A stretch of 64,000 bases of DNA from Nitrospinaceae bacterium (GTDB lineage Bacteria; Nitrospinota; Nitrospinia; Nitrospinales; Nitrospinaceae). Below are positions 23,320 to 44,766 of this stretch, piece after piece (position 1 is the first letter of the stretch; each line of letters begins with the position of its first letter). Where the stretch lies: NCBI GenBank assembly GCA_029261535.1, contig JAJDBF010000079.1, positions 577 to 64,576 of the forward strand, written 5' to 3'. The position numbers and the translations under genes are program-made. The notes beneath the pieces are model-generated. The model was not told the origin of the DNA. It saw only the letters and a list, made by a program, of their open reading frames with translations, and made no database searches.

Positions 23320-23883
23320 CTATGAAATTTTAGTCAGGGTATTTTTGTCGATATGATGAAACAGATCGGGTTTGCTCTTGATCTGGATTTGAGTGTCCTC
23401 TTCATAACTGAAACTGTTTTCAGAGTGGATAGTTACTTTCAATAGATAGTTTACCGTTTTGAATTCACGGTCGAGAAATATATTGGAGCAAATGCCATAA
23501 GTGTCCGAGCCGACCTTTGCCGAAAGTTCAAACGAATCGGCATTCTCATCGACGGTTCCCCCAGCCAGCACGTTCACGCCTCTTGGCACGATGAAGCAAC
23601 GCATGACCTGTCGTTCGGTCGCGTCCCAGAGCCAGTAACCAAGCTCTTCATGGAAAGGACTTTCTGCGCCCAGTGGCCAGGCAGTGGTTGAATAGCGAAG
23701 ACCATAGAGTTCCTGTTCGTGATTGTTCACCGGTCCAAAAGGATCGAACGTGATGCGTTCCCTGAATTTATTTTGCTCAACTCCACGGTCTTTGGCGGGC
23801 GCGGAGTCCTCGCCTTTATCCCCTTCCCAGATTCCAGCGAGTCTGGCGAGCGGCCCCAACTTTGCAATCAGTTTCTCATCCAT
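23320..23883 (-). CDS. Nitrobindin/THAP4-like beta-barrel (DUF1794-type) protein
   Basis: LARLAGIWEGDKGED...ERITFDPFG...LRYSTTAW...FHEELGYWLWD fits the L-x-G-x-W-x-G-x-G ... H-x-E-x-G-Y-W pattern I recall for this family. Confidence 0.5.
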   Translation of the reverse strand: MDEKLIAKLGPLARLAGIWEGDKGEDSAPAKDRGVEQNKFRERITFDPFGPVNNHEQELYGLRYSTTAWPLGAESPFHEELGYWLWDATERQVMRCFIVPRGVNVLAGGTVDENADSFELSAKVGSDTYGICSNIFLDREFKTVNYLLKVTIHSENSFSYEEDTQIQIKSKPDLFHHIDKNTLTKIS

Positions 23884-23993
23884 GCTTTCACCTCTTTGAT
23901 TGGGAAATAACCTATGAGGCTATTTTAAATCAAGCGGCACTAATTGTCCCGTGAATGTATGCGTCTTAATGAGGGAAGGGAGTTTGGCGTTGT

Positions 23994-24046
23994 TTAAAAA
24001 ACGGCCGGACACCCTGAAATCATCAGGATGCCCGGCACTTTAAAAT
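23994..24046 (-). terminator. Rho-independent terminator after the TonB-dependent receptor
   Basis: On the minus strand, CCGGGCAUCCUGA / UCAGGGUGUCCGG (11 of 13 positions paired) is followed by CCGUUUUUU. Confidence 0.6.
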
Positions 24047-24051
24047 TCACG

Positions 24052-29302: not shown

Positions 29303-30643
29303 ATGACGAATTTAGCAACAGCCCCTGCCTTAGAGGGGTTTGCCTCCCTGAACCTGATAACGCCTATTTGCAAAGCGGTTCAGGAGGAACAATATGTTAA
29401 TCCTACGCCCATCCAGTTGAAAGCCATTCCATATTTATTGCGTGGGCGCGATATGCTGGCGTGCGCCCAGACAGGAACAGGGAAAACGGCGGCCTTTGCT
29501 CTGCCTATTTTGCAGAGACTTTCTAAATCAGAAAGAGGGCCACGGTCCAAAGGCATCCGCGCTTTGGTTCTGACTCCGACGCGTGAACTGGCGGTGCAGA
29601 TCAGTGAAAATTTTGAAATATACGGACGTCACCTCAGGTTGCGGCATTTGGTCGTGTATGGCGGGGTTAGTCTTGGCAACCAGGTTCGCTTGATAAAAAG
29701 AGGAGTGGATATTCTGGTGGCAACTCCGGGGCGTTTACTCGACTTGATTCGACAGGGGCACCTTAGACTCAACGAAGTGGAGCTGTTTGTTCTCGACGAG
29801 GCTGATCGCATGATGGATATGGGATTTCTTCCCGATGTGAGAACCATCGAAGCAAAACTTCACCCTGAGCGGCAGTCCATGTTGTTTTCTGCCACACTCC
29901 CGGCGGAGATTGAAAAACTTTCAAAGCAGTTTTTAAAGGATCCGGTAAAAGTGGTGGTAGATCCTCCATCAAGCACGGTGGAAAAAATTGATCAGCGTCT
30001 ACTGTATGTGGATCGCGAGAATAAAAGTGCCCTGCTTGAAACCGTTTTGCAGGATGAAAGCATCGAGCGCGCGCTGGTGTTCACGCGGACCAAGCATGGA
30101 GCCAACAAGATTGCCAAGAACCTCAGCAAAAGTCGAATTCGCGCTGAAGCGTTTCATGGTAATAAATCACAAGCCGCGCGCACCTTGGCTCTGGAAAAGT
30201 TTCGTTCCGGAAAAGCGAGGGTTCTGGTAGCAACCGATGTAGCATCACGCGGGTTGGATGTCGATGGCATCACGCATGTGATCAATTATGAACTGCCTAA
30301 TGAGGCCGCGAATTATGTGCACCGCATCGGTAGAACCGCGCGGGCAGGGGCCACGGGTGTCGCGATTTCATTCTGTGACGCAGGTGAACGTTTTTTCCTC
30401 CGGAATATCCAAAGGGAAATTCAAAAAGATCTGGACGTCATTGGAGGCCACCCCTTTCCAGCAAAAATTGCTCCGGTGAAATCAGGAAAAAAACGGGGTG
30501 GTGGAGCTGAGAAGAAAAACGGAGCTCCTCAGCGGGCAAAAAGGAATAATAAACCCGCTAAAAGCACTGGCTGGAAGCCGGGCAAATATTCAGCGAAAAA
30601 GAAACCCGGTTTCAAGGGTCGCCCGTCAAAAAGCAGGGATTAA
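29303..30643 (+). CDS. rhlE: DEAD-box ATP-dependent RNA helicase (RhlE-like) with a basic C-terminal tail
   Basis: Q motif, AQTGTGKTAAF, PTRELA, DEAD, SAT and HRIGRTARAG motifs. The tail is K/R/G-rich. Confidence 0.9.
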   Translation: MTNLATAPALEGFASLNLITPICKAVQEEQYVNPTPIQLKAIPYLLRGRDMLACAQTGTGKTAAFALPILQRLSKSERGPRSKGIRALVLTPTRELAVQISENFEIYGRHLRLRHLVVYGGVSLGNQVRLIKRGVDILVATPGRLLDLIRQGHLRLNEVELFVLDEADRMMDMGFLPDVRTIEAKLHPERQSMLFSATLPAEIEKLSKQFLKDPVKVVVDPPSSTVEKIDQRLLYVDRENKSALLETVLQDESIERALVFTRTKHGANKIAKNLSKSRIRAEAFHGNKSQAARTLALEKFRSGKARVLVATDVASRGLDVDGITHVINYELPNEAANYVHRIGRTARAGATGVAISFCDAGERFFLRNIQREIQKDLDVIGGHPFPAKIAPVKSGKKRGGGAEKKNGAPQRAKRNNKPAKSTGWKPGKYSAKKKPGFKGRPSKSRD

Positions 30644-30673
30644 CAACCTTGTAAAATTATTTCGATAATACCT

Positions 30674-30708
30674 GGCTCCACCACCTTGCGGTGGGGCCAA
30701 ATATTTTT
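30674..30708 (+). terminator. Rho-independent terminator after rhlE
   Basis: GGCTCCACC / GGTGGGGCC stem (one G-U pair) followed by AAATATTTTT. Confidence 0.55.
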
Positions 30709-30750
30709 ACCCCGCAACGGTTTTTTGTTAGGGTTCGAAATTTCTCTACT

Positions 30751-30791
30751 CAGCTCCACATCCTCTTGACGGGGGGTGTGGGGCTGTTTTT
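30751..30791 (+). terminator. Second plus-strand terminator-like hairpin
   Basis: CAGCTCCACA (30751-30760) / TGTGGGGCTG (30777-30786) 10-bp stem with one G-U pair, followed by TTTTT. Confidence 0.45.
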
Positions 30792-30838
30792 ATGTGACCC
30801 ACAATATAGTTTTGGGTCCATTCATGGCACAGGCTATT

Positions 30839-33064
30839 TTATTTTGAAGTCATCGAATAGACTCCATCCCAATCGGAGGGAGGCGGGTGTTTCAGAAAAT
30901 CGCGACAGCGCAGGAGATAAGTATTGGAAGGCCCATCGCTTTCATCAATGGTCAACACATTTTCAAAACAATCGATTCCCTTTTTCCATTCTCTGGTTTT
31001 GTAACACCCAATCCCTTCGTTGAACAAGGGTAGTATCGTTTTCATAGAGTCGGATAGTTTATTCTTTTTCCCCAGCAATTCGTAAATGATCACAGGCTCC
31101 GCCTTGCCCATCACACGAATCCGGTCGAGCTCTCTGACTTCGACCGCATCCTTGACAACCTCATAAGTGAATTGACTGATCATGGTGTGCGTGCCGTATT
31201 GTTTGTTCACTCCTTCCAGTCTCGCCGCAAGGTTAACTGAATCGCCCATCATGGTGTAGTCCATGCGCGATTTCGACCCCATGTTGCCGACCACCATCGG
31301 TCCTGTATTGAGTCCGATGCGCATGGTCAATTCGTGCCGTCCCTGCTCTTTCCAAACAGCACGCATTTCCGCCAGACGTTCCTGCATGTCGAGGGAGGCC
31401 AGGCAGGCCCGCCGTGCATGGTCTTCAAATGGAATGGGTGCACCAAAGAAAGCGATGATGGCATCGCCTTCAAACTTGTCCACCGTTCCCTCGTAACCCA
31501 TGATGATGTCGGTCATTTCCGTCAGGTACTCGTTGAGCAAGGAAGTGAGTTGTTCTGGTGTCAATGCTTCGGAGATGGTAGAGAAGCCTGCAACATCGGA
31601 AAAGAAAGCGGTGAGCACTTTGCGTTCGCCGCCGAGCTTCAACAGTTTTGGATTCTTCACGACCTGATCGACCACCGTGGGTGCAAGGTATTGGCTGAAC
31701 GCTCCCTTGATAAACCTCTTTTCCTTTTCTTCGAATACGAATCGGTGCAGAGTGATTCCGGTATAAACAAATAACTGGGTGAACACGGGATAGACGGAAT
31801 TCAGCCACAACCCCTTTTCAACGAACAAGTAGTAATCTGTCAGCAAGTAACTGGAAATCCCGGCCCCCAATAGAAAAAATGTAGCCAGTGCCCGAAAATA
31901 CAGGCCGATCAATCCCAACATAAAACCGGAAATAAGAATGACGCAGATGTCGACCAATTGAATCCAGGGGGGTCGTGATAAAAAATCCTGCTGAATAATA
32001 TTTTCGATGAGATTGGCGTGAACTTCCACGCCTGGATAGAGCGATTCGTAAGGCGTGGTTCTTAAATCGAACGCCGATGCCGCCGTGGCACCGAGCAGAA
32101 CAATTTTTCCTTGAAGACTGTTGGCTGGAACCTTGTCGTTCAATACATCTGTTGCTGAAATATGTTGGAAGGTGTTTTTGGGACCGTAATAATTGACCAG
32201 CAATTCACCCACTCCGGTCGTCGGGATTTCAGTTTCTCCAAGCTTGACCCGATCAATACCGAAGGGGGCAATCGCAATACTGAGAGGTAATCGTGTGGCT
32301 TGCTGAAGGACCTGCAGGCCGAAAGGAGGAAACTGGTAATCGCCATGGTTGACCACTGCCGGTACTCTGCGTACCACCCCGTCGATTTCCGGTGAGTAGG
32401 TAACAAACCCCGCGCTGTTGGCACCGTCCATCAATTTAGGGATCGACATGCCCACCCCAAATATTGGATGGATGGTGACAGGATTTTCCTGGTCGAATCT
32501 TTGAACCACCGAATATTGGGAAAACTCCAACTGATCGAGGTGATTCTGGTTCAACTCTTCCACTGTTCGGTCCGCCTGGGAACGATCCTGATACACATAG
32601 TAACTGAGGACGGAGCGGTCCGACTGTAGAAGGGACTCCGCAAAGCGGCTGTCCGAATCGCTGACCTGCTCCAGCCAGGAGACCAGTTCCTGCTGAGTCA
32701 TTTTTGAGGTGTCGATGTTTTTAAAAGCGTCGCGTAGAAAATCAAAGGGAACGTAAGGATCTTTTTCGGGGAAGAAAATATCGATGCCGACCACGGCGGC
32801 ATTGTGTTCCACCAGCTTGTCGAGTAACTGCGCCAGTTTACTGCGAGGCCAGGGCCAGCGGCCCTGCTCCCTCAGACTCAACTCGTCGATGGCAACGATC
32901 ACCACCTGGTTGGAAATAGTTCGCAGACCGCGGGAGGCGACTTTCAGATCGTAGGCTTTAAGTTCCAGGAGATGGAAAAGTCGGGAGTCTTCTGTATAAA
33001 TAAAAAGGGACAGGAGGGAGAGAGCAATGGAAATTGTCAGGGAATTAACCCAAGCCTTTTTCAT
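30839..33064 (-). CDS. CHASE2-sensor class III adenylate/guanylate cyclase
   Basis: N-terminal TM helix plus a periplasmic region with the CHASE2 hallmark GRWPWPR. A cluster of TM helices follows, then the cyclase core (FFSDVAGFSTISE, FEGDAIIAFFGAP, RIGLNTGPMVVGNMGS, YTMMGDSVNLAARLEG) and a helical C-terminal tail. Confidence 0.85.
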   Translation of the reverse strand: MKKAWVNSLTISIALSLLSLFIYTEDSRLFHLLELKAYDLKVASRGLRTISNQVVIVAIDELSLREQGRWPWPRSKLAQLLDKLVEHNAAVVGIDIFFPEKDPYVPFDFLRDAFKNIDTSKMTQQELVSWLEQVSDSDSRFAESLLQSDRSVLSYYVYQDRSQADRTVEELNQNHLDQLEFSQYSVVQRFDQENPVTIHPIFGVGMSIPKLMDGANSAGFVTYSPEIDGVVRRVPAVVNHGDYQFPPFGLQVLQQATRLPLSIAIAPFGIDRVKLGETEIPTTGVGELLVNYYGPKNTFQHISATDVLNDKVPANSLQGKIVLLGATAASAFDLRTTPYESLYPGVEVHANLIENIIQQDFLSRPPWIQLVDICVILISGFMLGLIGLYFRALATFFLLGAGISSYLLTDYYLFVEKGLWLNSVYPVFTQLFVYTGITLHRFVFEEKEKRFIKGAFSQYLAPTVVDQVVKNPKLLKLGGERKVLTAFFSDVAGFSTISEALTPEQLTSLLNEYLTEMTDIIMGYEGTVDKFEGDAIIAFFGAPIPFEDHARRACLASLDMQERLAEMRAVWKEQGRHELTMRIGLNTGPMVVGNMGSKSRMDYTMMGDSVNLAARLEGVNKQYGTHTMISQFTYEVVKDAVEVRELDRIRVMGKAEPVIIYELLGKKNKLSDSMKTILPLFNEGIGCYKTREWKKGIDCFENVLTIDESDGPSNTYLLRCRDFLKHPPPSDWDGVYSMTSK

Positions 33065-33143
33065 AGCGGAATTTTATCAGTACCCGCTTTAAAGGTAAAG
33101 GCAAGGCAAGGCTTGGCAAATTGCCCTGGGGTCCGCACCGGAA

Positions 33144-36100
33144 TCAGGAACAACCCGCCGCCGCGTTTTTCAGGAAGCGGGTGAGGAACGTGCTCTGCGT
33201 GCCGGAGTTGAAGCCAGTAATAGGAAAGGTCTCGACCAGGTTGACATTACCTGCGGCGATGAAATTTCCAGCCGCGTTGATCTGCGCCGCCTTTACATTG
33301 ATGTTGCCTGCAGATGCAACCGTAACACCTGATGGCATGTTGAACTGACCAATCGTGTTGTTTTCGAAATCCGCAATCGCAGTGAAGTCAAACTGTGTCG
33401 TCGCAACATTGGTCAGGATGTTGATGTCGGTGATGGCATTCAATTGAAGGCCTTTGAACGCGGATGCTCCTCCAAGGAAAGTGATATTTTTGCCCGTGTT
33501 CATGATCACATTGCGGTTGATATTGGCTACGTTGAGCGGGGTGATATTATTCGCAAAAATATTCCCCGCATTAAACCCGCCGATAGTCAGGTCACGGGCA
33601 AAGATATTGGAAAGCTCCACTTTCGATATCTGCATGCCGCAACCGCCGAGGCAGGAGGCATTACCCACACCAATGGAACCGCCATCCGAAACGTTGATGG
33701 AAATATCGCCGGTGCCTGCGTTGAGGGTGAAGGTTGGCGCGTTGACGTAATCGTTGGCTGAAATTGAAATATTGTTATTGCTGGAGGCGACCGTGACACC
33801 CGCACCAAAATTGACATTGCCCGCGCCGTTGCCGTCGACATCCGCTTTCAGGTTAATGCCACCGGCGGTTGCCGTGAGGCTATTCTGAAAATTGATGTTG
33901 CCGTTGGCATTGGCATCAATACTCCTTACGGTCGAATCCTGATTCACAAAGTTTATGTTCTGCGACGTATTGAGTATGAACTGGTTGACCGAATTATTAC
34001 TGACGTTGTCTACATTGATATTGCCCTGGGAGAAAAAGGACAACTTGTTGGCGGTGATGGTATCTAGTTCCGCATCGGCTAGACTCATGCCAGCCCCGGC
34101 GGTACCCAAATTAAGGTTCTGATTGTCCGAAACCGCAACGAAAACGTTGCCGGTCCCCGCATTGAGACTTCCCGGCAAGCTGATGTCATCTGCATTGATC
34201 AAAACATTGTTATTATTTGACGTGACATTGCCAGCAATCGTCAACGTACCGGAACCCGGAGCGGCGGTGTCTGCATTCATTGTGAGAACGCCGTTGGCGC
34301 TCATGTTGCTATTGATATTTATATTACTTTGAGCACGCAGGGTAACAGCTCCGTTGGCGACGATCCCGGTACCGACTCCTTGGCCATTCAGGTTAAAGAA
34401 ATCTGCCGAATCGAGAATGACCCCGGGCGCAATCGTCAGGATGCCATTGTTGTCGGCATCGCTATCGGCATTGATCTCCAGGGCACCCGTCGTGGCCGTT
34501 ACGTTGCCCGCGATATTGATGCCATCATTGATGAACAAACCCGCAGATCTAAATACGGCCCCACCGGCACCCACGTTTAGCTGATTGGCTGAATTGAAGT
34601 TGACATTGTTAATGTTGGCGGTTTGTGCCGCCGTAATGTTATTGATCGAAATCGTGTTGGTCCCGGTGTCACCCACCTGCAATGTTCCTGCCGAAATACG
34701 TGACAACTCGCCGCCGTCGATTGTCAGATCGCCTGCACCCGTACCGACCCCGGTTGTGCGGTTATTGGATGCTCTAACGGTGAAAGTGTTTGTGCCTGTG
34801 TTCACATTGCCGTTGAGCGCGACATCTGCGGCTGTGACAAAAATGAAGAAATTTCCGGCACTGGAATCGACTGTCTTGCCTGCGCCCACCATGAAGGTGC
34901 CGGTACCGTTGTTGTCCAAATCCGAGTTGAAGCCCGAATTGCCACCTATACTGGTATTGGACTGCAAGTCTATAGAGTTGTTTGCAGAGAGGTTTAAACT
35001 GCCAGCCGCATCGATCATGGCACTGCCTGCATTCAGCCGCAATACGGAGTTGGAAGTGAGTGTTGTTCCGGCGGCGATATCAAGGTCTCCGATGGAATCG
35101 TTGTTGAAATCAGCGTTCAGTGTGAGGTCCTGCACGGTGGAGGACACGTTTTCCTGAACATTTATCCGATCGTTGGCAGTGGCTGTCAGGAACCTGAAAG
35201 TGGAAGCGTTATTCTGGAACACAATATCCCGCCCGGCGTTGATGAACAGGAAGTTCGCGATATTGTTGAAGCTCGCCGCCGTCACGCCGTCAATGAACAC
35301 GTCGCGGTTGGTTTTAGAGCTGGGTCCAAGCTCCAGGGATCCTGCTGTGATTCTGAGTATTTCAGCGTTGTCCAACTGAAGCAGGCTGGGCCCAGGGCTG
35401 CCAACAACACCCAGCTCCATATCAATGTTTCCCTGTGGAATTATACTGGTGGTTGCTGTTCCACTGTTCAGGTTGCCCTGCAGGTCAATATCGTCCGTGG
35501 AAATCGCCAAATTATCATTGGTCGTATTGATTGTGCTTCCCCCGGCAACATTAAAGTTGCTGGAATTCAGAGAAAGGAAGCTACTGAAGGTGCCTGCTGT
35601 CGTGACATTGGAATTTACATTCACATTTCCACTGGTACCAAGTTGCAACCGGGTAAAAGTACTGCCGGTTCCCGCTCCAAAATTAATATCTCCACCACCA
35701 ATAACATTAATATTCACTTCATTGATCTGATCTGTGTTGGCGGCGGCGACATCTTGTATAAAAAAGTTGCCGGGCCCTTGGAAATCAAGAATTCCATTGG
35801 GCACGACAACCCGGTTCAGATCGGCGTTGTCAATAAAAGCGTCACAAACGCTTCCACAATTGCTGGTGCCGAGTCCAAAACTTGTGCTGGAGGCACTTTG
35901 AATGAGGGACAACGTATCAGTGTCATCGAAGTTAAAGGTCCCATTGAAATCGAAATCGAAGGCGGTGATGACCGAGTTTGCGGTCGAGCCCAGTCCTTTA
36001 ACAGTAAAAGTGGTAGAAGCTTCAATATCGAACACGCCAAGGGCTCCATCCACAGTGGTTACGTTCAGGGTACCGCTGACAACGGAGCCGTCAGCATCCA

Positions 36101-37739
36101 GCGTAATACCGCCTCCTGAAAGCAGGACCAGGTTCAATATGTCATCCGTACCGGCACTGTCGAAAATCTTGTTGTTGAACTGGATATCACCGATGGCGTT
36201 CAAGGTTAGGGTTTTACCTGTCCCAATGCCGTTGTAGTCGAGGTCGGTGTTGACGGTGATGTTACCGCTCTGGCTATTGGTTCCGCTGGTGGTTGTGGTA
36301 ACCGTAACTGCTGCGCCGATAATGAGAGCCGCACGGATCAGGTTCCAGCCCAGGCTGGCGGCGTCGTTGGTTGTCGCAAAGGGGTTGAGGGCGTTGATGT
36401 TGGTGTTACCGCCACCGGCGACGATCTGGAGATCGTTACCGGTCGGATCGATCAACCAGTGTCCGCCTTGACCGTTGACTGCACTGACATCCGGTATCTG
36501 TCCGATCTCAAAATATTTTCCGCCAGAGATTTCAACGAAGCCACCGTTACCGGATACTGCCCCGCCGCGTGCATAAATATTTCCGAAGGCGCGGTTGGTG
36601 TCGGTAGCCCAGGTGATGATGCGACCGCCATCGCCTTCCGTGATGGCATCGGCGTTGATCTCGGCGTTGTCATCTATATAGAGGATGTCGGTATTGGTTT
36701 CACCTTCAACCGCGGTCGCGCCCTGCTGTTCACCGCCTAAAAGAATTTCGCCACCGCCGGCATCACCGGAAGCATCAATTTTGGCTTCATCAAACAGCCC
36801 GACTTTTTCGCCGAGAACGATAACCTGTCCACCGGTCTCGCCGCTGTTCTTGCCAGAAACATCGAGTGTGCCGGAATTGCTGACGATGCCGCTATCGCCA
36901 CCAAAAAGAAAAATTCGTCCATTTTTTTCAACGACAGATTTGGCTTCAATCACGCCTTCGTTGTTGATCACGTTACGAATGACACTGCCCGCATCTTGCG
37001 CCGATAGGATGACTTGCCCGCCATCGGCCTTGAGGGTTCCGGAATTGTGAACCCGGTCCTTTAGAGTGTTGCCTTCTGTGTCTTCGACATCACCTGATAC
37101 TTTTTCAGTCAGAGCGAAATGGATCAACCCGTTGCCGGTAAAATCAAGGGTCGCCGCTTCCCCTGAGGACAAGGCGATGGAGCCAAGGTTGGCGATGATG
37201 GTTCCTGTATTGGACACCGCAGGCGCGAGCAGGCCGGTGTAGCCTGTTGTTTCAATCCGGCCCTGATTGATCACCGAGGCCAGTGACCTTGTCGGGTCCT
37301 GAAAGAAACGATAATTGCGATCAAGAAAATCCTGGTCGGAAATGCCAAGGGTGGTGGCGACCAGTCCGTGTGCATTGACAACAGCAGATGGGCCGAACAG
37401 GATGCCTGACGGGTTTGTTAAAAATACCTGGCCATTGGCGGTCAGTCGCCCCATGATCCTGCTGGGGTCCTGCCCTGTGACGCGGTTGAGCGAAACGGAC
37501 TGGGCATTCGGCTGATTGAAGGTGACCGATTCCGCACTGCCAATAGAGAAACTTTGCCAGTTGGTGATCATCTGCGAAGTGTTCTGCTGAATCACCATGT
37601 GTCCGGGAGCCGAATTGCCAATGGTGCCGCTACCCGCGACGACCTGACCGTTCCCGGGCAGGGCAAACGTCAGTGCTGGGGAAACTCCAATGGCGTAAAT
37701 GAGGAGCAGGCTGATCCACTTTTTCGTTATGGCTTTCAT
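33144..37739 (-). CDS. TpsA-type exoprotein (filamentous-haemagglutinin N-terminal domain plus long beta-helix)
   Basis: Signal peptide, then a TPS domain: ITNWQSFSIG, FNQPNAQSVSLNRVTG, GQVFLTNPSGILFG. The remaining ~1300 aa are G/N/T/S/A-rich repetitive beta-helix-like sequence. I saw no VENN or toxin-like C-terminus. Confidence 0.9.
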   Translation of the reverse strand: MKAITKKWISLLLIYAIGVSPALTFALPGNGQVVAGSGTIGNSAPGHMVIQQNTSQMITNWQSFSIGSAESVTFNQPNAQSVSLNRVTGQDPSRIMGRLTANGQVFLTNPSGILFGPSAVVNAHGLVATTLGISDQDFLDRNYRFFQDPTRSLASVINQGRIETTGYTGLLAPAVSNTGTIIANLGSIALSSGEAATLDFTGNGLIHFALTEKVSGDVEDTEGNTLKDRVHNSGTLKADGGQVILSAQDAGSVIRNVINNEGVIEAKSVVEKNGRIFLFGGDSGIVSNSGTLDVSGKNSGETGGQVIVLGEKVGLFDEAKIDASGDAGGGEILLGGEQQGATAVEGETNTDILYIDDNAEINADAITEGDGGRIITWATDTNRAFGNIYARGGAVSGNGGFVEISGGKYFEIGQIPDVSAVNGQGGHWLIDPTGNDLQIVAGGGNTNINALNPFATTNDAASLGWNLIRAALIIGAAVTVTTTTSGTNSQSGNITVNTDLDYNGIGTGKTLTLNAIGDIQFNNKIFDSAGTDDILNLVLLSGGGITLDADGSVVSGTLNVTTVDGALGVFDIEASTTFTVKGLGSTANSVITAFDFDFNGTFNFDDTDTLSLIQSASSTSFGLGTSNCGSVCDAFIDNADLNRVVVPNGILDFQGPGNFFIQDVAAANTDQINEVNINVIGGGDINFGAGTGSTFTRLQLGTSGNVNVNSNVTTAGTFSSFLSLNSSNFNVAGGSTINTTNDNLAISTDDIDLQGNLNSGTATTSIIPQGNIDMELGVVGSPGPSLLQLDNAEILRITAGSLELGPSSKTNRDVFIDGVTAASFNNIANFLFINAGRDIVFQNNASTFRFLTATANDRINVQENVSSTVQDLTLNADFNNDSIGDLDIAAGTTLTSNSVLRLNAGSAMIDAAGSLNLSANNSIDLQSNTSIGGNSGFNSDLDNNGTGTFMVGAGKTVDSSAGNFFIFVTAADVALNGNVNTGTNTFTVRASNNRTTGVGTGAGDLTIDGGELSRISAGTLQVGDTGTNTISINNITAAQTANINNVNFNSANQLNVGAGGAVFRSAGLFINDGINIAGNVTATTGALEINADSDADNNGILTIAPGVILDSADFFNLNGQGVGTGIVANGAVTLRAQSNININSNMSANGVLTMNADTAAPGSGTLTIAGNVTSNNNNVLINADDISLPGSLNAGTGNVFVAVSDNQNLNLGTAGAGMSLADAELDTITANKLSFFSQGNINVDNVSNNSVNQFILNTSQNINFVNQDSTVRSIDANANGNINFQNSLTATAGGINLKADVDGNGAGNVNFGAGVTVASSNNNISISANDYVNAPTFTLNAGTGDISINVSDGGSIGVGNASCLGGCGMQISKVELSNIFARDLTIGGFNAGNIFANNITPLNVANINRNVIMNTGKNITFLGGASAFKGLQLNAITDINILTNVATTQFDFTAIADFENNTIGQFNMPSGVTVASAGNINVKAAQINAAGNFIAAGNVNLVETFPITGFNSGTQSTFLTRFLKNAAAGCS

Positions 37740-37762
37740 AGTCTCTTCTCGGTGTTTACCGG

Positions 37763-38608
37763 TCAGTTAATGTTGGTTACTTTGCAGGACTCATCCAGAA
37801 TGTCGTCAAATAAATCGAAAAATTCCCTAAAATCGTCATCGTCTCCAAAATCTCCATCTTGAAGCTCAACCAGAACCTTGCCTTTTCCCTTTTTATCGGT
37901 GAATTTGGACTGGAGCCAGGCCATGGTCACCCGCTGAATCTGGTTGAGTTCAAATTCAGTCAGCGGGGTTGGGTCGGTCGGCGGTTTACCAAGTTCGATG
38001 ATATTTTTCATCATGGCACCGACGAGAACCTCCCCGATTATTTTTGGGTCCCTGTTGCTTGTCACAACGTCTCCAGCCTGATTGGCCACCAAGGTTGAAA
38101 AGTCGGTGACGCTGATAAAACCTTTGGTGCCACGGGCCGCGATGTTGCCGGTGGGTGTGACCATCTTGAATCTGGACTTTGGATTTTTCTGCCCCTTGTT
38201 GACAATGTACATAGACAATCCGTGGGTGACGTTGATAACCCCTTGCCGCAATTTGTCTTCGGGTTTGTACAGATAGGATTCCACTGTCATGGTGGTGTTG
38301 GGGCCGAGGGCCATCAGACTGGAGTCCTCGAACAGGATTTTCATCCGGCTCTTGCGAGCGGTGCGGAACGTATCAGTGGCGTAAATCGCTTGATTCGGTT
38401 TGACCTTGCTCCATGATCCGAAAGAGACCTTGCTGGTTTTGTTTTTATCACCGCTGGCAACAGGGGAAGTACCACCAGATTTAACCTCAGCAGACCCAAT
38501 AATTGATATTACCTTGCCGACCGGTTTTTCCTGAGCCGATACAAGACCTGGTATGACCAGGGTGAATAACAGGGTAGCGATCACGAGTTTGAAGTTGAAT
38601 CGTTTCAT
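37763..38608 (-). CDS. Secreted FecR-domain protein with an acidic C-terminal tail
   Basis: Signal peptide (LVIPGLVSAQE). FecR-like pattern GKVISIIGSAEVKSGG...IYATDTFRTARKSRMKILFEDSSLMALGPNTTMTV...FKMVTPTGNIAARGTKGFISV. The tail is DGDFGDDDDFREFFDLFDDILDE. Its ATG overlaps the tpsB stop. Confidence 0.75.
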   Translation of the reverse strand: MKRFNFKLVIATLLFTLVIPGLVSAQEKPVGKVISIIGSAEVKSGGTSPVASGDKNKTSKVSFGSWSKVKPNQAIYATDTFRTARKSRMKILFEDSSLMALGPNTTMTVESYLYKPEDKLRQGVINVTHGLSMYIVNKGQKNPKSRFKMVTPTGNIAARGTKGFISVTDFSTLVANQAGDVVTSNRDPKIIGEVLVGAMMKNIIELGKPPTDPTPLTEFELNQIQRVTMAWLQSKFTDKKGKGKVLVELQDGDFGDDDDFREFFDLFDDILDESCKVTNIN

Positions 38609-40362
38609 CAGTAAGTAATCAAACCTCCGAGATAAACGGTGCCCGCGCTTCCATCCGAGGGTCGCTGGGTACTGAACACCGGAACGCCATAGGCAACGGA
38701 AAAACTGTAAGCAGGATGATTTTGATCCCGCCGTGGAACATTGATCCGGAGTCCTCCACCCGCACCACTGACCTCACTTTCTCCCGGTCCGTCGCTTGGC
38801 TGGCGGTCTGAAATGGAAGTGCGTCCATGATCGAGAAAAGCAAACAGGGAGAACACCTCCTTTATTGTTGGCTTGGGAGATTTAGTGATCGGCAGGTTAA
38901 TGGGTAGCGGCAATATATATTCAAGCGTCGTGGTGTACCCGGAATCACCTGCAACTTCTGCCAATGGAAATCCGCGCACCGTCCCGATTCCACCCGCGGC
39001 AATTTGATCGGGGGAGAGCAGACGACGATCGGCGATTTGCCCGTTGAAGCGGATCATAAACATGCTGTCGAGAAAGAAGGCCGATTGATAGCGAACAACA
39101 TTGATCGTTGCCACCAGGGAATCTCCCCGACCCATTAACCTTGAGTTCAATGGGTCAGCAGTGTTTTCCTCTGTGTAACCAAACTGGAGCCGTCCATCAA
39201 CGATGGTTTGACCTCGCAGGGAATCGATCCAGTCTCCTCCTGCTATAAAGTGGTAGTTGAACAAAACATCATCACTGCTTGGCGCACCCAGCGTGTAATT
39301 TTTAAAATAGCGGAAATCCATTCCACCCCCGGCGTACAAACGGCCTTTGCGGGAGCGCAAAAAATTGCGTACCAGGTCCATGGTGAAAATGTGCGAACTG
39401 CCGCCCGCATTGAGCAATGCAAGAGAACCGCCCAGTTGGTGCTCAGAAAAAATGTATGACATCTGAAGGGTGGTGCGACCATCATCTGACACGGGCAGGG
39501 AGTAAGCCGGGTTCAGAAAAGTCTGACCATCTTCTGATCGGACAGCGCGAAAGGAAATGAGGTCGCCCAGCTTGAGAGCACTGCTGTAAGTAGTTGCGAT
39601 TCCAAACCGGTTGGCACCGGTGAATGCCGAGCCGTAGTTGTCGCCATCAAAGGAAAAAGTATAGGGGCGAGATTCCTTGACATTAAACACGAGGTCCGAT
39701 GTTCCGGGGTCCTTGCCTTGTTTGAGAATCGACTCCACATGAAACCCTTGAATATCGTTGAAATCCAGCAGGGTCCTTTCCAGGGTTTTTTCCCGAATAA
39801 TTTTTTCCTGTCGGACATTATTCAATCGCTGGGAAATATCTTCCGATTTGATCCTCTTGTTTCCCTGTATTTCAATGCTTCCGATCCGGCCTTCCATTAC
39901 CTGAACCGTCACCACTCCATCCACAATTTCCTGTTGAGGTAGATAGGCGCGGCTTAGAAAATAACCACGCTTGACGTATTCGGCGGTGATTTCCTGAACG
40001 ATCAAATCAAGGACACCTAAAGTAACCTTATTGCCAATTCCTGGCTCGAATATTGGAGCCAACTCGGCAGAGCTGATCAACGTATTGCCGATGATAAGAA
40101 TTTCCCGGATAATAAATGATGGGCCCGAACCGGGATCGACAATGGTACGACTGTCCTGCACTGTGATGCTGGGAATCTGACCTTTTTGGGGCAAGGGTCT
40201 GGTTTGTGATTGTCGCAGGGATTTTTGACTGATACCCGACTCACCGGCAGGGGGAACAATAGCCTGACCGTATCCGATTGACGGCATCAAAAACGCACAA
40301 ATCGATAATAAGATCCAAAACAGGAGCGTCTGGTTTTTAGGAGAAGGAAGCAAAGGCATCAA
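38608..40362 (-). CDS. TpsB (ShlB/FhaC/HecB-family) outer-membrane transporter
   Basis: Signal peptide, POTRA region (IREILIIGNTLISSAEL...YVKRGYFLSRAYLPQQEIVDGVVTVQVMEGRIGSIEIQGNKR) and a C-terminal beta-barrel ending in an aromatic residue (GGLITY). Confidence 0.88.
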   Translation of the reverse strand: MMPLLPSPKNQTLLFWILLSICAFLMPSIGYGQAIVPPAGESGISQKSLRQSQTRPLPQKGQIPSITVQDSRTIVDPGSGPSFIIREILIIGNTLISSAELAPIFEPGIGNKVTLGVLDLIVQEITAEYVKRGYFLSRAYLPQQEIVDGVVTVQVMEGRIGSIEIQGNKRIKSEDISQRLNNVRQEKIIREKTLERTLLDFNDIQGFHVESILKQGKDPGTSDLVFNVKESRPYTFSFDGDNYGSAFTGANRFGIATTYSSALKLGDLISFRAVRSEDGQTFLNPAYSLPVSDDGRTTLQMSYIFSEHQLGGSLALLNAGGSSHIFTMDLVRNFLRSRKGRLYAGGGMDFRYFKNYTLGAPSSDDVLFNYHFIAGGDWIDSLRGQTIVDGRLQFGYTEENTADPLNSRLMGRGDSLVATINVVRYQSAFFLDSMFMIRFNGQIADRRLLSPDQIAAGGIGTVRGFPLAEVAGDSGYTTTLEYILPLPINLPITKSPKPTIKEVFSLFAFLDHGRTSISDRQPSDGPGESEVSGAGGGLRINVPRRDQNHPAYSFSVAYGVPVFSTQRPSDGSAGTVYLGGLITY

Positions 40363-40706
40363 TGATGTATTAAGAGTAATATTTACTTAACTATACAACA
40401 CAATCTAACCCTTTTAAAACCAACAAATAACATCTGATAAAACTCGGAGAATTTCAGCCTGGGAAAGAGCTATTCTGCGTGAAATTGAATAAAAGTACGT
40501 TTCAAATGGATCACTGAGAAAATATCAATGGGTCAACTCTCAATAGGCTATACGGAGTTAAGTTGGCATAAGATATTGATAATTAATGCTGATTGTACTT
40601 ATAAGCTATGTTGAAATACTTGGTAAATCCCGCGTGGGCGAACATCTTGTTGATGGGATGATAAGAAAAATTACTCAATAGTGTCTTATAGATCATGGAA
40701 TATTAA

Positions 40707-40737
40707 ATCCAAAACCTCAAAAAGTTTATTTTTGAGG
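40707..40737 (-). terminator. Rho-independent terminator after the PAP2 gene
   Basis: CCTCAAAAA (40715-40723) / TTTTTGAGG (40729-40737) 9-bp stem. On the minus strand it is followed by UUUUGGAUUU. Confidence 0.6.
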
Positions 40738-40748
40738 CGATCGTGAGG

Positions 40749-41912
40749 TCAAAATTGGTAGTCTAGGGCTATGCCTTGCCGGGTTGAGCTGACCATGGGA
40801 CGCAACATGAGGCGGGCGGCCTTGGGATTGCTGTGCATTTTATGCAAGGCAGAAGCTGTGAAATATCCAACAGCGGCACCGAAAAAAACATCTGACATCC
40901 AGTGGACATTGTCATTGACGCGGGACAACGCGGTCATCGTGGCCAATGTGTACGCCACCGGTGGTACCCATACATGGCGTTTGTATTGTTTTGCAAAAAT
41001 GGTCGCGATTGAAAATGCGGTCGTGGTGTGCCCAGAGGGAAAGGATACACCGCCACCCTGGAAGGGTCCCTTGAAGTTATCTGCGTCAACGCTACCACTT
41101 GGGCGTTCCCTACCAATCAAATTTTTCAATGTCAGTGTGAAGGCATTTGATAATAAAAAACTTTCTGTCGCCAACAGGGCTGTGCTTTGGAGTTCTTCAT
41201 CATCACGCAGAAGTCCGGTTAAATAGAAGAATGACAGGTAAGCGGCGGCGTATTTTCCATCGCCCGCAATTTCGCCAATTTTCAAGAAATCTTTCCGCGC
41301 TTGGCTCGGGCTGTCTATGACTTCCTCGCGGACCGTTTCATCAAGAAAGCCGAGGGCTACCGTGGTCCCACCAATCAGGCCCGCCGTCAGCCAGTCTTTG
41401 GAATCCCAGCGAACAGGAGACGTTACCAGTTGAATACCATCTGTGACAAACCCTTTAAAAAAATCTGTGTTGAGCTCGACATCAGGGTGCGGCACGGTGG
41501 AAGGTTTCCGTGCGGACCGACTCCGTTCAGGATTATTCTGTTTGAGGGGTTTCAGTGTCCTGGATTCAGGTTTTGCGACAAACACTTTTTTTGAACGCGC
41601 TGGCTTTTTTATCTTGAGACGGGAATTGATTTCCGGTTTTCGGTGCCTCACTTTTTTATGAGTGATCCCGGCGCAACCGGTAGTGACCAGCAAAGAAGAA
41701 ATTAACATCAAAACAATTGACCCTTGTTTTCCAGAACAGGGGATGACTTTCTGAAATGGGACTAATTTAACGACTCTCTTCCATGAAGCTCGGGAGGCTT
41801 CAAGTAGGAATCTTTTCCTGCTTCGTGACCACTGGAAACAGGCGGGCGCGGTGCCCGGTTGAAGGAGATACCTGGCGATGATAATTCCTCTGAAAATTTG
41901 CCATAAGCCCAT
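40749..41912 (-). CDS. PAP2-family (acid/lipid) phosphatase, probably a lipoprotein
   Basis: PAP2 motifs KNLIGRERP, PSGHT and SRVNDNVHWMSD. An internal lipobox-like LVTTGC suggests the true start is downstream of the 41912 ATG, so the start is uncertain. Confidence 0.75.
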   Translation of the reverse strand: MGLWQIFRGIIIARYLLQPGTAPACFQWSRSRKRFLLEASRASWKRVVKLVPFQKVIPCSGKQGSIVLMLISSLLVTTGCAGITHKKVRHRKPEINSRLKIKKPARSKKVFVAKPESRTLKPLKQNNPERSRSARKPSTVPHPDVELNTDFFKGFVTDGIQLVTSPVRWDSKDWLTAGLIGGTTVALGFLDETVREEVIDSPSQARKDFLKIGEIAGDGKYAAAYLSFFYLTGLLRDDEELQSTALLATESFLLSNAFTLTLKNLIGRERPSGSVDADNFKGPFQGGGVSFPSGHTTTAFSIATIFAKQYKRHVWVPPVAYTLATMTALSRVNDNVHWMSDVFFGAAVGYFTASALHKMHSNPKAARLMLRPMVSSTRQGIALDYQF

Positions 41913-42240: not shown

Positions 42241-44766
42241 ATGACCGGGCCACGCCTTTTCAAATCAGCGTTCAACTTTTTTTGCGCACTGTCGGTGATG
42301 TTGCTCTCAGCTTCTTTTCCCGCCCAGGCAGAAACGGCTATTACAAAAACGCCATCCAATATCCGGGCAGTGGTGGGCAACCAAAAAATACATCTTTCCT
42401 GGGATCAGCTTGAGCAGAATGTTTCCAGGTACAGGGTTCATATTGCTGAGGTGGACCCGGGCACAGGCAAAGTTTCTCCCAAAGGATTTTATGAATTCGT
42501 TCCGAAAACTTTACAGGACCTTGGTGGCGAAACTCAGAGCGCGTCCATTGCCATTCATTTTCTTCCGGATGGCATCACACCCCTGGAAAATTCGAAAAGT
42601 TATTCGGTAACTGTTCGTGCGGAATCGGGCGATCAGTGGAATGATCCAAGTGAGGCCGTGGTGGCGATGCCAAACGCTATTTCTGCCAGCCCGCCAGCCC
42701 ATCCTGTTTTATTTATCCATGGCTTTACGGGCAGTTCCGGTGGCACTTTTGGAGACACCACTCAATTTTTGGAGCAGGAACTGGGCTGGACTCCCGGAGG
42801 CAATTTGAAAATTGTCGGAGACAATTTCAACCTGGTTCCGGAAAATTTTAACGCCAATGGAGATTTTTTTACGCTGGATTTTGGCGATGGTTCCGCGACT
42901 TATCCAGATGCGCTGGGATTGATTCATCAGGCACAGGAACTGGAGGTGATTATTGATTTTCTGAAAAATCAGGGGGTGTCGCCTATCGTGTTGATGGGGC
43001 ACAGCAACGGTGGGCTGGTTGCCCGATATTATCTGGCGCATCATGTGCAGGCGACCACCAATGTGAAAAAATCTATCTCCTATGGTACGCCGCACCGGGG
43101 TGCTGACCTGAGTTTTTTTGGGGGTCCGAGTAATCATGGAATCCGCGATACGTTCTACGTCTGTTCTCCGGCGAACCAGGTCGTTTACACAGGAAACAAT
43201 TTATTTGGTGAGACGGTTGATAACCAGTTTCTAACCAATTTGTCGCAGGAAATTCTTCCCTCACTGGACGAAGGTTATGTCTCCATATTGGGCAGTCTCC
43301 GGGAGAGGAGTGCCAATTGCCATAACACCGATCTTGGAGACGGTGTTGTCGCGAGGACCAGTCAGGATTTGCGGCTGGTGGTGAATCCCCCGGAAAAAAT
43401 CAACACGCTGTTGACGGACCATCTTCATTCTGGACAGGGCAATCATATCAGTGCTGTGCTGTGCGGTATGGATCAGCAAAGATGCGCTGTCTTTTCGGCA
43501 CGGCATTCGCTAAGCGGCGGAGACCCGGTCACCCTTCAGGTCACTTCTCCAAATGGTCAGGTTGTGAGGGAAGCTGTGGGCGCGACCCCGGAATTGATTG
43601 AAATTCCCGGTGCAGATTTGATGGAAGTTTCGGATGAAGGTGCCATTGAAATAGACACGGTGATGGTGCCCTTCGCTGACCCCGGTGTGTTTACGGTTTT
43701 GTTGACCGCCGCAAGTGGGTCTGCGCCAACGGATATTTTTTCGCTGGTGGTTGATGTCGGTGGCGTTAAAGTTGTATTGGCTAAGGACATGAAGGTAGAA
43801 GATATTCCGCCAGCCGGTTTCTCGGTGATCGTGCCGCATCCTCTGGGGCATTCGGATTTCGATGGCGATACGCAGTCGGATGCATTAGCCGTTCACTCTA
43901 GCGGTTTGCTTGTCTCGGCGTTGATCGAAAACTCTGTGTTGCAAAACTTTGGGTTTCTCCTGCAAGCCGATCCAGCACAAGGCTGGACGGTCCATGCTAC
44001 CGGGGATTTCAACGGTGATAAAAAAGCCGACCTGCTTCTCTACAACACAACGTCGGGCGACTACCGTACCGTCCTGCTCGATGGCACCACGGTCTTAAGC
44101 GATACCGTGTTGTTCACCATCGATCCTTCCATCGGTGTCGAGCCGCGTGGTGTTGGCGATTTCGATGGCGATGGCGAAGACGAAATCATCATCTACCATC
44201 CGCCCAGCGGATTCACCGCGCTGGTCTATCTTACGGCGGGCGTGTTCTCTTCCTTTGAAGCGATCACAACCATCGACGTTGCGGGCAACTGGACCCTCAC
44301 TGACACCGGTCATTTCAACGGCGATAACAAAACTGATCTGCTCATCACTAACAGCGTCACCGGAGAAACCGCCGTCATCGAAATGGACGGCTCGGTGGCG
44401 ACCGGACCGACTCCGATCTTCACTTTTGATCCTGCCACCGGTTGGGTGGTAAAAGATGTCGGGGATTTCAATGGCGATGGTAAAACGGACGTGCTCATCC
44501 TGCACAGCACCGGTGCGCTCGGTGTGCTGGTCATGGATGGACTGCTGTTCCAAAGTTTTTACATACCTGGAGGGTTACTGCCGCAATGGGAGTTGGTCAA
44601 CGTTGGCAACTATGACAGCAGTAACAAAGCGGACTTCCTGATTTACGACACGGTCACAGGCGACTTGATGACCGCCGTTCAGGACGGTATCAGTATCACT
44701 TCCTACACACCCGTGCTGAACCTTGGCCCCGCCTCAGGCTGGACCTACCACAGCGGCAAACCCTAA
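42241..44766 (+). CDS. Secreted multidomain protein: Ig/FN3-like module, alpha/beta-hydrolase (lipase-like) and FG-GAP/VCBS repeat propeller
   Basis: Signal peptide ending AQA|E. PVLFIHGFTGSSGG and the nucleophile elbow GHSNGG. At least five repeats of the GDFNGDxKxDLLxxN type (GDFNGDKKADLLLYN, GDFDGDGEDEIIIYH, GHFNGDNKTDLLITN, GDFNGDGKTDVLILH, GNYDSSNKADFLIYD). Confidence 0.75.
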   Translation: MTGPRLFKSAFNFFCALSVMLLSASFPAQAETAITKTPSNIRAVVGNQKIHLSWDQLEQNVSRYRVHIAEVDPGTGKVSPKGFYEFVPKTLQDLGGETQSASIAIHFLPDGITPLENSKSYSVTVRAESGDQWNDPSEAVVAMPNAISASPPAHPVLFIHGFTGSSGGTFGDTTQFLEQELGWTPGGNLKIVGDNFNLVPENFNANGDFFTLDFGDGSATYPDALGLIHQAQELEVIIDFLKNQGVSPIVLMGHSNGGLVARYYLAHHVQATTNVKKSISYGTPHRGADLSFFGGPSNHGIRDTFYVCSPANQVVYTGNNLFGETVDNQFLTNLSQEILPSLDEGYVSILGSLRERSANCHNTDLGDGVVARTSQDLRLVVNPPEKINTLLTDHLHSGQGNHISAVLCGMDQQRCAVFSARHSLSGGDPVTLQVTSPNGQVVREAVGATPELIEIPGADLMEVSDEGAIEIDTVMVPFADPGVFTVLLTAASGSAPTDIFSLVVDVGGVKVVLAKDMKVEDIPPAGFSVIVPHPLGHSDFDGDTQSDALAVHSSGLLVSALIENSVLQNFGFLLQADPAQGWTVHATGDFNGDKKADLLLYNTTSGDYRTVLLDGTTVLSDTVLFTIDPSIGVEPRGVGDFDGDGEDEIIIYHPPSGFTALVYLTAGVFSSFEAITTIDVAGNWTLTDTGHFNGDNKTDLLITNSVTGETAVIEMDGSVATGPTPIFTFDPATGWVVKDVGDFNGDGKTDVLILHSTGALGVLVMDGLLFQSFYIPGGLLPQWELVNVGNYDSSNKADFLIYDTVTGDLMTAVQDGISITSYTPVLNLGPASGWTYHSGKP

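Follow-up and report, generated by a model that had tools for sequence, protein, structure and literature searches.

A two-partner secretion pair encoded with a FecR-fold protein and a CHASE2 adenylate cyclase in Nitrospinota: a possible route from the cell surface to cyclic AMP

The window analysed here is a stretch of 64,000 nucleotides from a Nitrospinaceae bacterium (contig JAJDBF010000079.1 of assembly GCA_029261535.1), and the system in question is a cassette of four minus-strand genes within it. Read head to tail, the genes encode the two-partner secretion (TPS) transporter TpsB, a FecR-like protein, the exoprotein TpsA and a class III cyclase with a CHASE2 domain. A reading of the window from its sequence alone (the sequence-only reading) had proposed these four open reading frames (ORFs) and their identities. 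The ORF check reproduces their coordinates, and matches in Pfam and NCBIfam bear out all four identities. The junctions are likewise as proposed: the tpsB stop overlaps the ATG of the FecR-like gene (TGATG at 38606-38610), 23 nt separate the FecR-like gene from tpsA, and 79 nt separate tpsA from the cyclase gene. The genes, with lengths in amino acids (aa), and their domains and tails are as follows.

38608..40362, minus strand: tpsB, 584 aa, with POTRA_2, POTRA and ShlB domains (Pfam).
37763..38608, minus strand: FecR-like gene, 281 aa, with FecR domain PF04773 (Pfam).
37784..37834, minus strand: C-terminal tail motif of the FecR-like protein, DFREFFDLFDDILDES-C, with the Cys275 codon at 37786-37784 (alignment).
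33144..37739, minus strand: tpsA, 1531 aa, with PF05860 TPS and TIGR01901.
36864..37610, minus strand: TPS secretion domain, TpsA residues 44-292 (Pfam envelope), with NPSG at about residue 109.
33147..33194, minus strand: C-terminal tail of TpsA, STFLTRFLKNAAAG-C-S, with the terminal Cys codon at 33152-33150 (comparison of complete TpsA ORFs).
30839..33064, minus strand: gene for a predicted CHASE2 class IIIb adenylate cyclase, 741 aa, with CHASE2 and Guanylate_cyc (Pfam).
31925..33007, minus strand: CHASE2 extracytoplasmic domain, cyclase residues 20-380 (Pfam envelope), with GRWPWPR at 67-73.
31082..31615, minus strand: catalytic domain, cyclase residues 484-661 (alignment to CyaB 3r5g and Cya2).

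TpsB matches POTRA_2 (E 3.8e-20), POTRA (E 3.7e-08) and ShlB (E 5.6e-21), and by these matches is an outer-membrane two-partner secretion transporter with two POTRA domains and a ShlB-type barrel. TpsA opens with the expected TPS secretion domain (PF05860, E 8.8e-37; TIGR01901, E 1.3e-24), including the NPSG motif, and continues into a body rich in G, N, T and A that ends in a conserved C-terminal module of ~110 aa. Its length varies among loci from ~530 to more than 3260 aa, with both ends conserved, and tpsA is without tandem DNA repeats in a repeat search. The pair has the domains that define type Vb secretion, and export of TpsA through TpsB is predicted. TpsB, the FecR-like protein and TpsA each carry a single N-terminal hydrophobic segment compatible with a signal peptide. 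The sequence-only reading had also remarked on the lack of a VENN-type toxin end and of an immunity gene; indeed, VENN, VDNN and ELYN motifs are all absent from TpsA, TPS is its only Pfam domain, and the gaps are too small for an immunity-sized ORF. A contact-dependent inhibition (CDI) toxin system of the CdiBAI type was rejected, since a VENN or pretoxin motif, a toxin domain and an adjacent immunity gene are all lacking. A C-terminal sorting signal of the PEP-CTERM, GlyGly-CTERM or MYXO-CTERM type was also rejected, as the tails have no hydrophobic C-terminal helix and give no NCBIfam match.

The FecR-like protein (PF04773, E 1.1e-10) consists of a signal peptide, a beta-rich core spanning approximately residues 30-215, an acidic linker and a C-terminal tail; the Pfam match and the signal-peptide-like N-terminus agree with its earlier description as a secreted FecR-domain protein. 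In Foldseek, the AlphaFold2 model (pLDDT 83.7, pTM 0.78) is matched best by the C-terminal cell-surface signalling domain of PupR (6ovk_R, E 6e-07), and also by the Bacteroidetes anti-sigma factor 4m0h (E 9e-07). As modelled, the window protein has the periplasmic FecR fold. By Pfam and hydrophobicity it has no membrane helix beyond the N-terminal segment and no anti-sigma domain. A sequence search of solved structures with this protein returns nothing meaningful, and its sole NCBIfam match, a weak one, is the Leptospira surface adhesin Lsa33. A FecIRA-type sigma-factor switch was rejected, with neither an anti-sigma domain nor a sigma factor at the locus. The TonB-dependent receptor encoded at 24052-25899 comprises Plug and barrel only, without a signalling domain. 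Searched with a profile, a set of 1.84 billion representative proteins yields a tight family of 43 representatives at E <=1e-30, set apart by an abrupt fall in score from the distant secreted FecR-domain proteins, which number in the thousands. All homologues of the FecR-like protein that carry a name are from Nitrospinota.

The fourth gene had been read as a membrane class III cyclase with an extracytoplasmic CHASE2 domain, and both Pfam (CHASE2 PF05226, E 3.4e-63; Guanylate_cyc, E 9.3e-24) and the hydrophobic segments (residues 4-24, and from 365 onward) confirm it; GRWPWPR lies inside the CHASE2 domain, as had been proposed. An N-terminal membrane helix is followed by the periplasmic CHASE2 domain, further membrane helices, the catalytic domain and TPR-like C-terminal helices. 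The nearest solved structure is Pseudomonas aeruginosa CyaB (3r5g, E 2.3e-42). The AlphaFold2 model has a pLDDT of 83.8, its catalytic domain aligns with 3r5g at a TM score of 0.89, and a structure search with the whole cyclase is dominated by matches to the catalytic domain. The metal-binding Asp residues (FFSDVAGF, EGDA) and the transition-state Asn and Arg (VNLAARLE) are present. At the positions of adenine specificity the protein has Lys (DKFEGD) and Thr (DYTMMG), as does CyaB, whereas these residues are Glu and Gly in the guanylate cyclase Cya2. Because the Lys/Thr pair is that of class IIIb adenylate cyclases, the protein is predicted to be such an enzyme, with cyclic AMP (cAMP) rather than cyclic GMP (cGMP) as its output. 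The cyclic-nucleotide signal expected earlier, cAMP or cGMP, is retained by virtue of the complete class III residue set, and its cGMP half is dropped, since the Lys/Thr pair indicates ATP as substrate.

Profiles built from the window and the first three further loci were run on six-frame ORFs of 43 non-redundant Nitrospinota loci, all from one phylum and related by descent, so that counts over them are not independent events. A scan of one genome per species contributed 40 more loci to this set, essentially all Nitrospinota, with two to three copies in several genomes. In the long contigs L001, L002 and L003 (L-numbers denote individual loci), the order is TpsB, FecR-like protein, TpsA and CHASE2 cyclase, and proteins of the conserved cassette are ~45-55% identical across the phylum. 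Two of these three loci lie beside a suf gene cluster and one elsewhere, and the surroundings in the window are different again, making at least three contexts. The FecR-like gene is directly followed by a TPS gene in 34 of the 38 loci with enough downstream sequence and preceded by TpsB in at least 29 of 37. Of the 20 loci that can be judged, 15 have a cyclase gene behind a complete TpsA, an attachment limited to a single subclade to which the window belongs, and the tight same-strand spacing of tpsA and cyclase is conserved among loci. The four-gene operon of the sequence-only reading therefore holds as to its order, which recurs across Nitrospinota; it does not hold as to the cyclase, which is absent from at least four paralogous loci. 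To judge from gene content, TpsB, the FecR-like protein and TpsA form the constant core of the cassette, and the cyclase is its variable member. In L020, the FecR-like gene is directly followed by the cyclase gene without an intact TpsA, and in L011 (1117-5128) these two genes are kept beside mere fragments of TpsB and TpsA, through apparent decay or perhaps an assembly error. Since the FecR-like gene is common to TPS pairing without a cyclase and to cyclase pairing without an intact TpsA, it appears to be the hub of the cassette.

Several further features accompany these loci. Locus L014 (2-1717), which is apparently decayed or perhaps affected by an assembly error, holds a FecR-like gene, a TPS fragment of 122 aa and a small downstream gene, and no cyclase. 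A gene for a protein of ~122 aa lies ~15 nt past the cyclase in 14 of the 18 cyclase-bearing loci (L001:14758-15126, L002:15591-15956 and 12 others); a further copy occurs in the decayed L014, and the window has none, a convergent helicase gene taking its place. The protein has four LGE.LV..G.I....L..AL..Q-like repeats and a weak match to DUF4388. Its repeat motif presumably resembles the nucleotide-binding MshEN / T2SSE_N repeats, and its position makes the protein a candidate fifth member of the cassette, located in the cytoplasm. In L003:4540-7074, two tandem genes with cNMP-binding and HATPase_c domains, possibly cAMP receptors, stand directly upstream of the cassette. The paralogous loci L026, L033, L036 and L042 have giant TpsA genes (>3000 aa) without a full TpsB upstream, and between their FecR-like gene and tpsA lies an ORF of 104-112 aa with faint similarity to TpsB. 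A second, inverted FecR-like/TPS pair is found ~9 kb away in L026 and L042, and a FecR-like gene only in L033.

The conserved extracytoplasmic cysteines (Cys) of the module are confined to two protein ends, those of TpsA and the FecR-like protein, and their pairing is a new feature that the sequence-only reading had missed. All 44 complete FecR-like homologues have a Cys within the last 8 residues, behind a variable acidic linker and an aromatic motif. It is the only Cys of the mature protein in 40 of the 44 (Cys275 in the window) and is near-invariant across an 86-sequence alignment. In the AlphaFold2 model, the aromatic motif is docked on the core with a pLDDT of ~85 and the residues after the Cys are disordered, so that the Cys would be accessible. 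Complete TpsA ORFs end in Cys in 20 of 23 cases, with Cys as the final residue in 19 and the window protein ending in -GCS; of the three exceptions, two are split genes, and in these the downstream ORF closes with GC. The number of Cys is odd in 18 of the 23 complete proteins. Mature TpsB is free of Cys in 26 of 32 sequences, and the CHASE2 ectodomain (residues 25-375) in 17 of 18 homologues, the single exception being Cys374 of the window protein at a membrane-helix boundary. The terminal pair is kept in the cyclase-free loci L025, L031, L037 and L040, and it persists despite altered gene order in L025 and L041. None of 30 distant FecR-domain relatives inspected has the Cys tail. As two unpaired Cys face an oxidising periplasm on proteins encoded side by side, an intermolecular disulfide is the simplest reading, and its existence is put tentatively, at rather less than an even chance.

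The pairing of FecR and CHASE2 extends beyond Nitrospinota. A homology search with the CHASE2 ectodomain yields only Nitrospinota-like proteins among the best 120 matches, and the adjacencies in other phyla are taken from plasmid records and from the distant-FecR profile. The CHASE2 cyclases examined in plasmid records of Ensifer, Paracoccus and Methylocystis each adjoin a FecR-domain gene. On Sinorhizobium meliloti pSymB, the start of a CHASE2 cyclase gene is overlapped by a gene for a 1219-aa protein with FecR and TPR domains and a C-terminal region of ~600 aa. This protein is probably NsrA and its neighbour probably the cyclase CyaK, since in size and layout it agrees with NsrA as published, where the barrel occupies residues 600-1200 and only the barrel loops are described as surface-exposed (PMC7529298). 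NsrA is an outer-membrane protein required genetically for the CHASE2 cyclases CyaK and CyaD1/D2 to perceive an external protein signal (PMC7529298, PMC13001267, PMC10463352). Other published examples include the 'BiofilmReg' operon of Burkholderia, which holds a response regulator, a LysM-FecR protein, a CHASE2 histidine kinase and DUF4136 (PMC5192318), and a Campylobacterota cluster of a CHASE2 cyclase, a phosphodiesterase, a FecR protein and a TPR protein (PMC9239204). Among the genes that the cAMP-dependent regulator Clr targets in S. meliloti is smc02177, which encodes a FecR domain (PMC5498481).

The NsrA system resembles that of the window in having an outer-membrane component and a FecR-domain gene near a CHASE2 cyclase gene. 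In the window only tpsA stands between the FecR-like gene and the cyclase gene, and in L020 the two are directly adjacent, as in the NsrA type. The two systems differ in their construction: in the probable NsrA, FecR, TPR and barrel form one polypeptide without TpsA or TpsB, whereas the window encodes a separate 281-aa FecR-like protein, a TPS pair and terminal Cys. The NsrA-like C-terminal region and the window TpsB have no detectable similarity. The Burkholderia and Campylobacterota clusters share with the window a secreted FecR-domain protein beside a CHASE2 sensor, but they have no TPS pair, and in Burkholderia the output is a histidine kinase and the FecR protein carries LysM. The general scheme in which an outer-membrane protein and a FecR domain feed a CHASE2 cyclase is already known from S. 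meliloti. The new element, as the gene content indicates, is an outer-membrane arm made of a two-partner secretion pair with a FecR-fold protein as third partner. In the searchable literature, largely open-access, no paper was found that links TPS genes with CHASE2, places a FecR-domain protein in a TPS locus or gives a TPS pair a FecR-fold protein as its third member. The earlier statement that no characterised example exists stands for the combination of TPS and CHASE2, and gives way in the case of NsrA acting on CyaK and CyaD, a characterised relative that joins a probably FecR-bearing outer-membrane protein to CHASE2.

More distant FecR-domain proteins occur beside a variety of envelope proteins, which suggests, from their domain architectures, that the superfamily is generally attached to outer-membrane devices. 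Many of them end in a beta-signal-like ...VNV.IVF(P) tail. In the Nitrospirota locus L048:6684-12822, a TPR protein, a FecR protein, a 647-aa beta-helix protein and a CHASE2 cyclase parallel the order of the window; the TPR protein has weak Slam-like and barrel matches, and the beta-helix protein (NosD/Beta_helix) is Cys-rich with a lipoprotein-like N-terminus. A second non-proteobacterial locus combines a CHASE2 cyclase with TPR, FecR and Big_5 proteins. In L053:6623-10568, a Slam translocator gene (TPR_Slam and SlipAM) directly precedes that of an 855-aa protein in which FecR is joined to a TbpB-like barrel. The Slam/FecR-TbpB-like locus and L048 involve the same distant superfamily of secreted FecR-domain proteins, paired with a translocator or a beta-helical protein. 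They differ from the window in that the translocator family is another, the terminal Cys tail is missing and none is characterised. On the single 6.3-kb contig L054 (454-5666), the gene for a TpsB of the window family (43% identical) is followed by those for a sigma-54 activator and for a CHASE2-SpoIIE (PP2C) protein, and an RsbW-like kinase is encoded opposite; TpsB beside CHASE2-PP2C fits a shared input module whose output has been swapped. Plasmid pn1 of Nostoc sp. UHCC 0926 (L056:9712-23446) has a gene for an AAA_35-CHASE2 protein beside DUF928 and CHAT-TPR genes, and a gene for a 1384-aa TPS-domain protein lies ~6.6 kb from the CHASE2 gene. There is no FecR gene or terminal-Cys motif in L056, which may represent a second, unrelated TPS-CHASE2 neighbourhood.

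The conserved cassette and the adjacency of FecR and CHASE2 in many lineages support the earlier proposal of the FecR-fold protein as a plausible link between the secretion pair and CHASE2. In the mechanism proposed here, three-partner type Vb secretion is joined to a cAMP-producing receptor, and events at the surface are reported as cAMP. TpsB would export the beta-helical TpsA filament to the cell surface, while the last TpsA residues would stay in the periplasm, with the terminal Cys disulfide-bonded to the C-terminal Cys of the FecR-like protein. The folded FecR-like domain would be unable to pass the TpsB pore and would therefore hold the filament to the cell as a stopper. The same domain would also be what the inner-membrane adenylate cyclase contacts in the periplasm through its CHASE2 ectodomain. 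If the filament were bound, pulled, cleaved or lost, the position or availability of the FecR-like domain would shift, and through it the conformation of CHASE2 and the synthesis of cAMP, with signalling running from the outside in. For the mechanism as a whole the chances are about evenly balanced. That the FecR-like protein is the partner of CHASE2 is somewhat more probable than the disulfide. The most far-reaching version is a covalent trans-envelope tether, in which the filament sits in the TpsB pore, its final residue is disulfide-bonded to a FecR-fold ligand of CHASE2, and tension, binding or loss is read as cAMP; this version is doubtful.

Several observations weigh against this mechanism. 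Four loci (L030, L031, L037 and L040) have room for a cyclase and contain no CHASE2 gene, the cassette being followed there by genes for a penicillin-binding protein, a SPOR protein or MgtE. Such cyclase-free loci may mean that the primary role of the FecR-like protein lies within secretion or anchoring. L054 pairs TpsB with CHASE2 and has no FecR-like or TpsA gene between them. Some distant FecR relatives are fused to a TbpB-like barrel and paired with Slam, a hint that a FecR domain may also lie on the cell surface. Homodimers through either terminal Cys are an alternative to the mixed bond. A conserved promoter-like element ahead of the cyclase ATG suggests independent transcription, and the common descent of the loci, stated above, limits what their number can tell.

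The alternative that survives best treats the FecR-like protein solely as a secretion accessory, a stopper, anchor or chaperone for TpsA, and the cyclase as a neighbouring sensor of some unrelated input, tied to it by regulation only. The trio of TpsB, FecR-like protein and TpsA is indeed invariant, the Cys pair is retained in the cyclase-free loci, the cyclase has a promoter-like element of its own, and HMW1 and HxuA are known cases of a TpsA held in its pore in a disulfide-dependent way (PMC5422565). It is nonetheless unlikely, given that FecR-domain genes recur beside CHASE2 sensors in unrelated lineages devoid of TPS genes (PMC5192318, PMC9239204), that the FecR-like and cyclase genes persist after the loss of TpsA (L020, L011), and that tpsA and the cyclase gene keep their close same-strand spacing from locus to locus.

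A second alternative, in which the FecR-like protein is co-exported with TpsA and displayed on the surface, disulfide-linked to the filament end as its binding domain, leaves CHASE2 to sense something else, for example envelope load. The nearest structures are periplasmic domains of anti-sigma regulators, and the restriction of exposure to the barrel loops in NsrA, as described in PMC7529298, would place the FecR-bearing N-terminal part of the probable NsrA in the periplasm. Surface display would moreover require the TpsB pore to admit two chains joined into a branched structure by a disulfide, and it does not explain the widespread adjacency of FecR and CHASE2. Its support comes from the distant FecR relatives fused to a TbpB-like barrel beside Slam, whose known substrates reach the surface, from a 655-aa Paracoccus protein with a weak TbpB_B_D match, and from the weak Lsa33 match of the FecR-like protein itself. 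Surface display is accordingly given a low probability.

An inside-out arrangement, in which the product of the cyclase, cAMP, governs how the TPS pair is expressed or secreted and the regulator is sited beside its target, is held to be improbable. The TPS toxin ExlBA of P. aeruginosa is reportedly under cAMP and c-di-GMP control, the cyclase may have its own promoter, and L003 has the two cNMP-binding ATPase-type genes just upstream. However, an extracytoplasmic CHASE2 sensor and a periplasmic transducer fold of the FecR type point to an external input, and no conserved cAMP-receptor regulator accompanies the cassette in the window or L001-L003. Chance adjacency of four functionally unlinked genes, for which the unrelated housekeeping nature of the flanking genes might speak, is scarcely credible, since the order recurs across Nitrospinota genomes at ~45-55% protein identity despite differing flanks.

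The proposed sensing through a periplasmic FecR-fold partner can be set beside systems that share some of its parts. In the FhaB prodomain of Bordetella, part of a TpsA is reportedly retained in the periplasm with a fate coupled to surface events, and in the secretion arrest of CdiA a TpsA portion stays periplasmic and is likewise coupled to surface events. In contrast to what is proposed for the window, neither FhaB nor CdiA works with a separate FecR-fold protein or signals through a cyclic nucleotide. In the FecA-FecR-FecI and PupB-PupR systems, as is proposed for the window, a periplasmic FecR-fold domain joins an outer-membrane protein to signalling at the inner membrane, and the periplasmic signalling domain of PupR binds the outer-membrane transducer. 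The window protein differs from these in lacking an anti-sigma domain and a membrane helix, and the cassette in lacking an ECF sigma factor and a TonB-dependent transducer. The output of FecA-FecR-FecI is release of a sigma factor, whereas that of the window cassette is predicted to be cAMP. In HMW1 and HxuA of Haemophilus influenzae, the TpsA C-terminus is thought to be periplasmic and locked in the TpsB pore by a disulfide-containing anchor (review PMC5422565, citing Buscher 2006). There the disulfide is intramolecular, between two Cys in the TpsA tail, whereas the window TpsA has one terminal Cys and the matching Cys is on the FecR-fold protein.

The input of CHASE2 is still described as unknown (PMC5192318), and this domain heads cyclases, kinases and phosphatases in many phyla. 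If the tether is true, a type V secretion system would act as a mechanosensory or contact-sensory antenna, and a protein partner would be identified as the long-sought input of CHASE2. Type V secretion would also gain a genuine third partner and an intermolecular anchor of the HMW1 type. The cassette and the FecR-CHASE2 pairs elsewhere suggest that CHASE2 may read a periplasmic FecR-fold protein tied to an outer-membrane device. For Nitrospinota, which are major marine nitrite oxidisers, the cassette suggests a way in which surfaces or particles could be sensed and reported to cAMP signalling.

Three candidate sites bear on transcription of the cassette, as follows.

40390..40418, minus strand: promoter-like site before tpsB, TTTAAA-17-TATAGT (consensus match only).
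33071..33099, minus strand: promoter-like element in the tpsA-cyclase gap, TTTACC-17-TGA-TAAAAT (consensus scan).
30751..30786, plus strand: strong hairpin of 16 pairs with a T-run (terminator scan).

In the tpsA-cyclase gap, the extended -10 (TGA-TAAAAT) ends 6 nt before the cyclase ATG, a spacing at which a leaderless cyclase mRNA would be possible. TGnTAAAAT stands 6 nt before this ATG in the window and in the loci L001, L002, L004-L008 and L010 of its clade; similar elements are present in L011, L024 and L034, and there is none in five more distant loci. The terminator scan finds no terminator-like site in the two internal gaps. The sequence-only reading had named independent promoters or terminators between the genes as evidence that would refute it; the terminators are missing from both gaps and a candidate promoter is present ahead of the cyclase. 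Because the arrangement is conserved, an internal promoter is no argument against a functional link, and the element suggests that the cyclase sensor can be made separately from the filament.

The cassette is flanked in the window by a PAP2 phosphatase gene upstream and a convergent DEAD-box helicase gene downstream. The gap between the PAP2 gene and tpsB measures 386 nt, with the promoter-like site ~30 nt ahead of tpsB and a terminator-like hairpin at 40738-40714, downstream of the PAP2 gene (terminator scan). The hairpin at the other end of the cassette, between the convergent cyclase and DEAD-box helicase genes, is by its position likely to be the end of both transcription units. No RNA family of Rfam is matched in window 30000-41500. 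About 5 kb from the cassette, at 23320-25899 on the minus strand, the TonB-dependent receptor gene adjoins that of a THAP4-like haem-binding beta-barrel protein, and no tie of this pair to the cassette was found. Divergent from the PAP2 gene ahead of the cassette, a plus-strand gene at 42241-44766 encodes an 841-aa protein in which a fibronectin type III domain and FG-GAP repeats accompany a PGAP1-like alpha/beta hydrolase.

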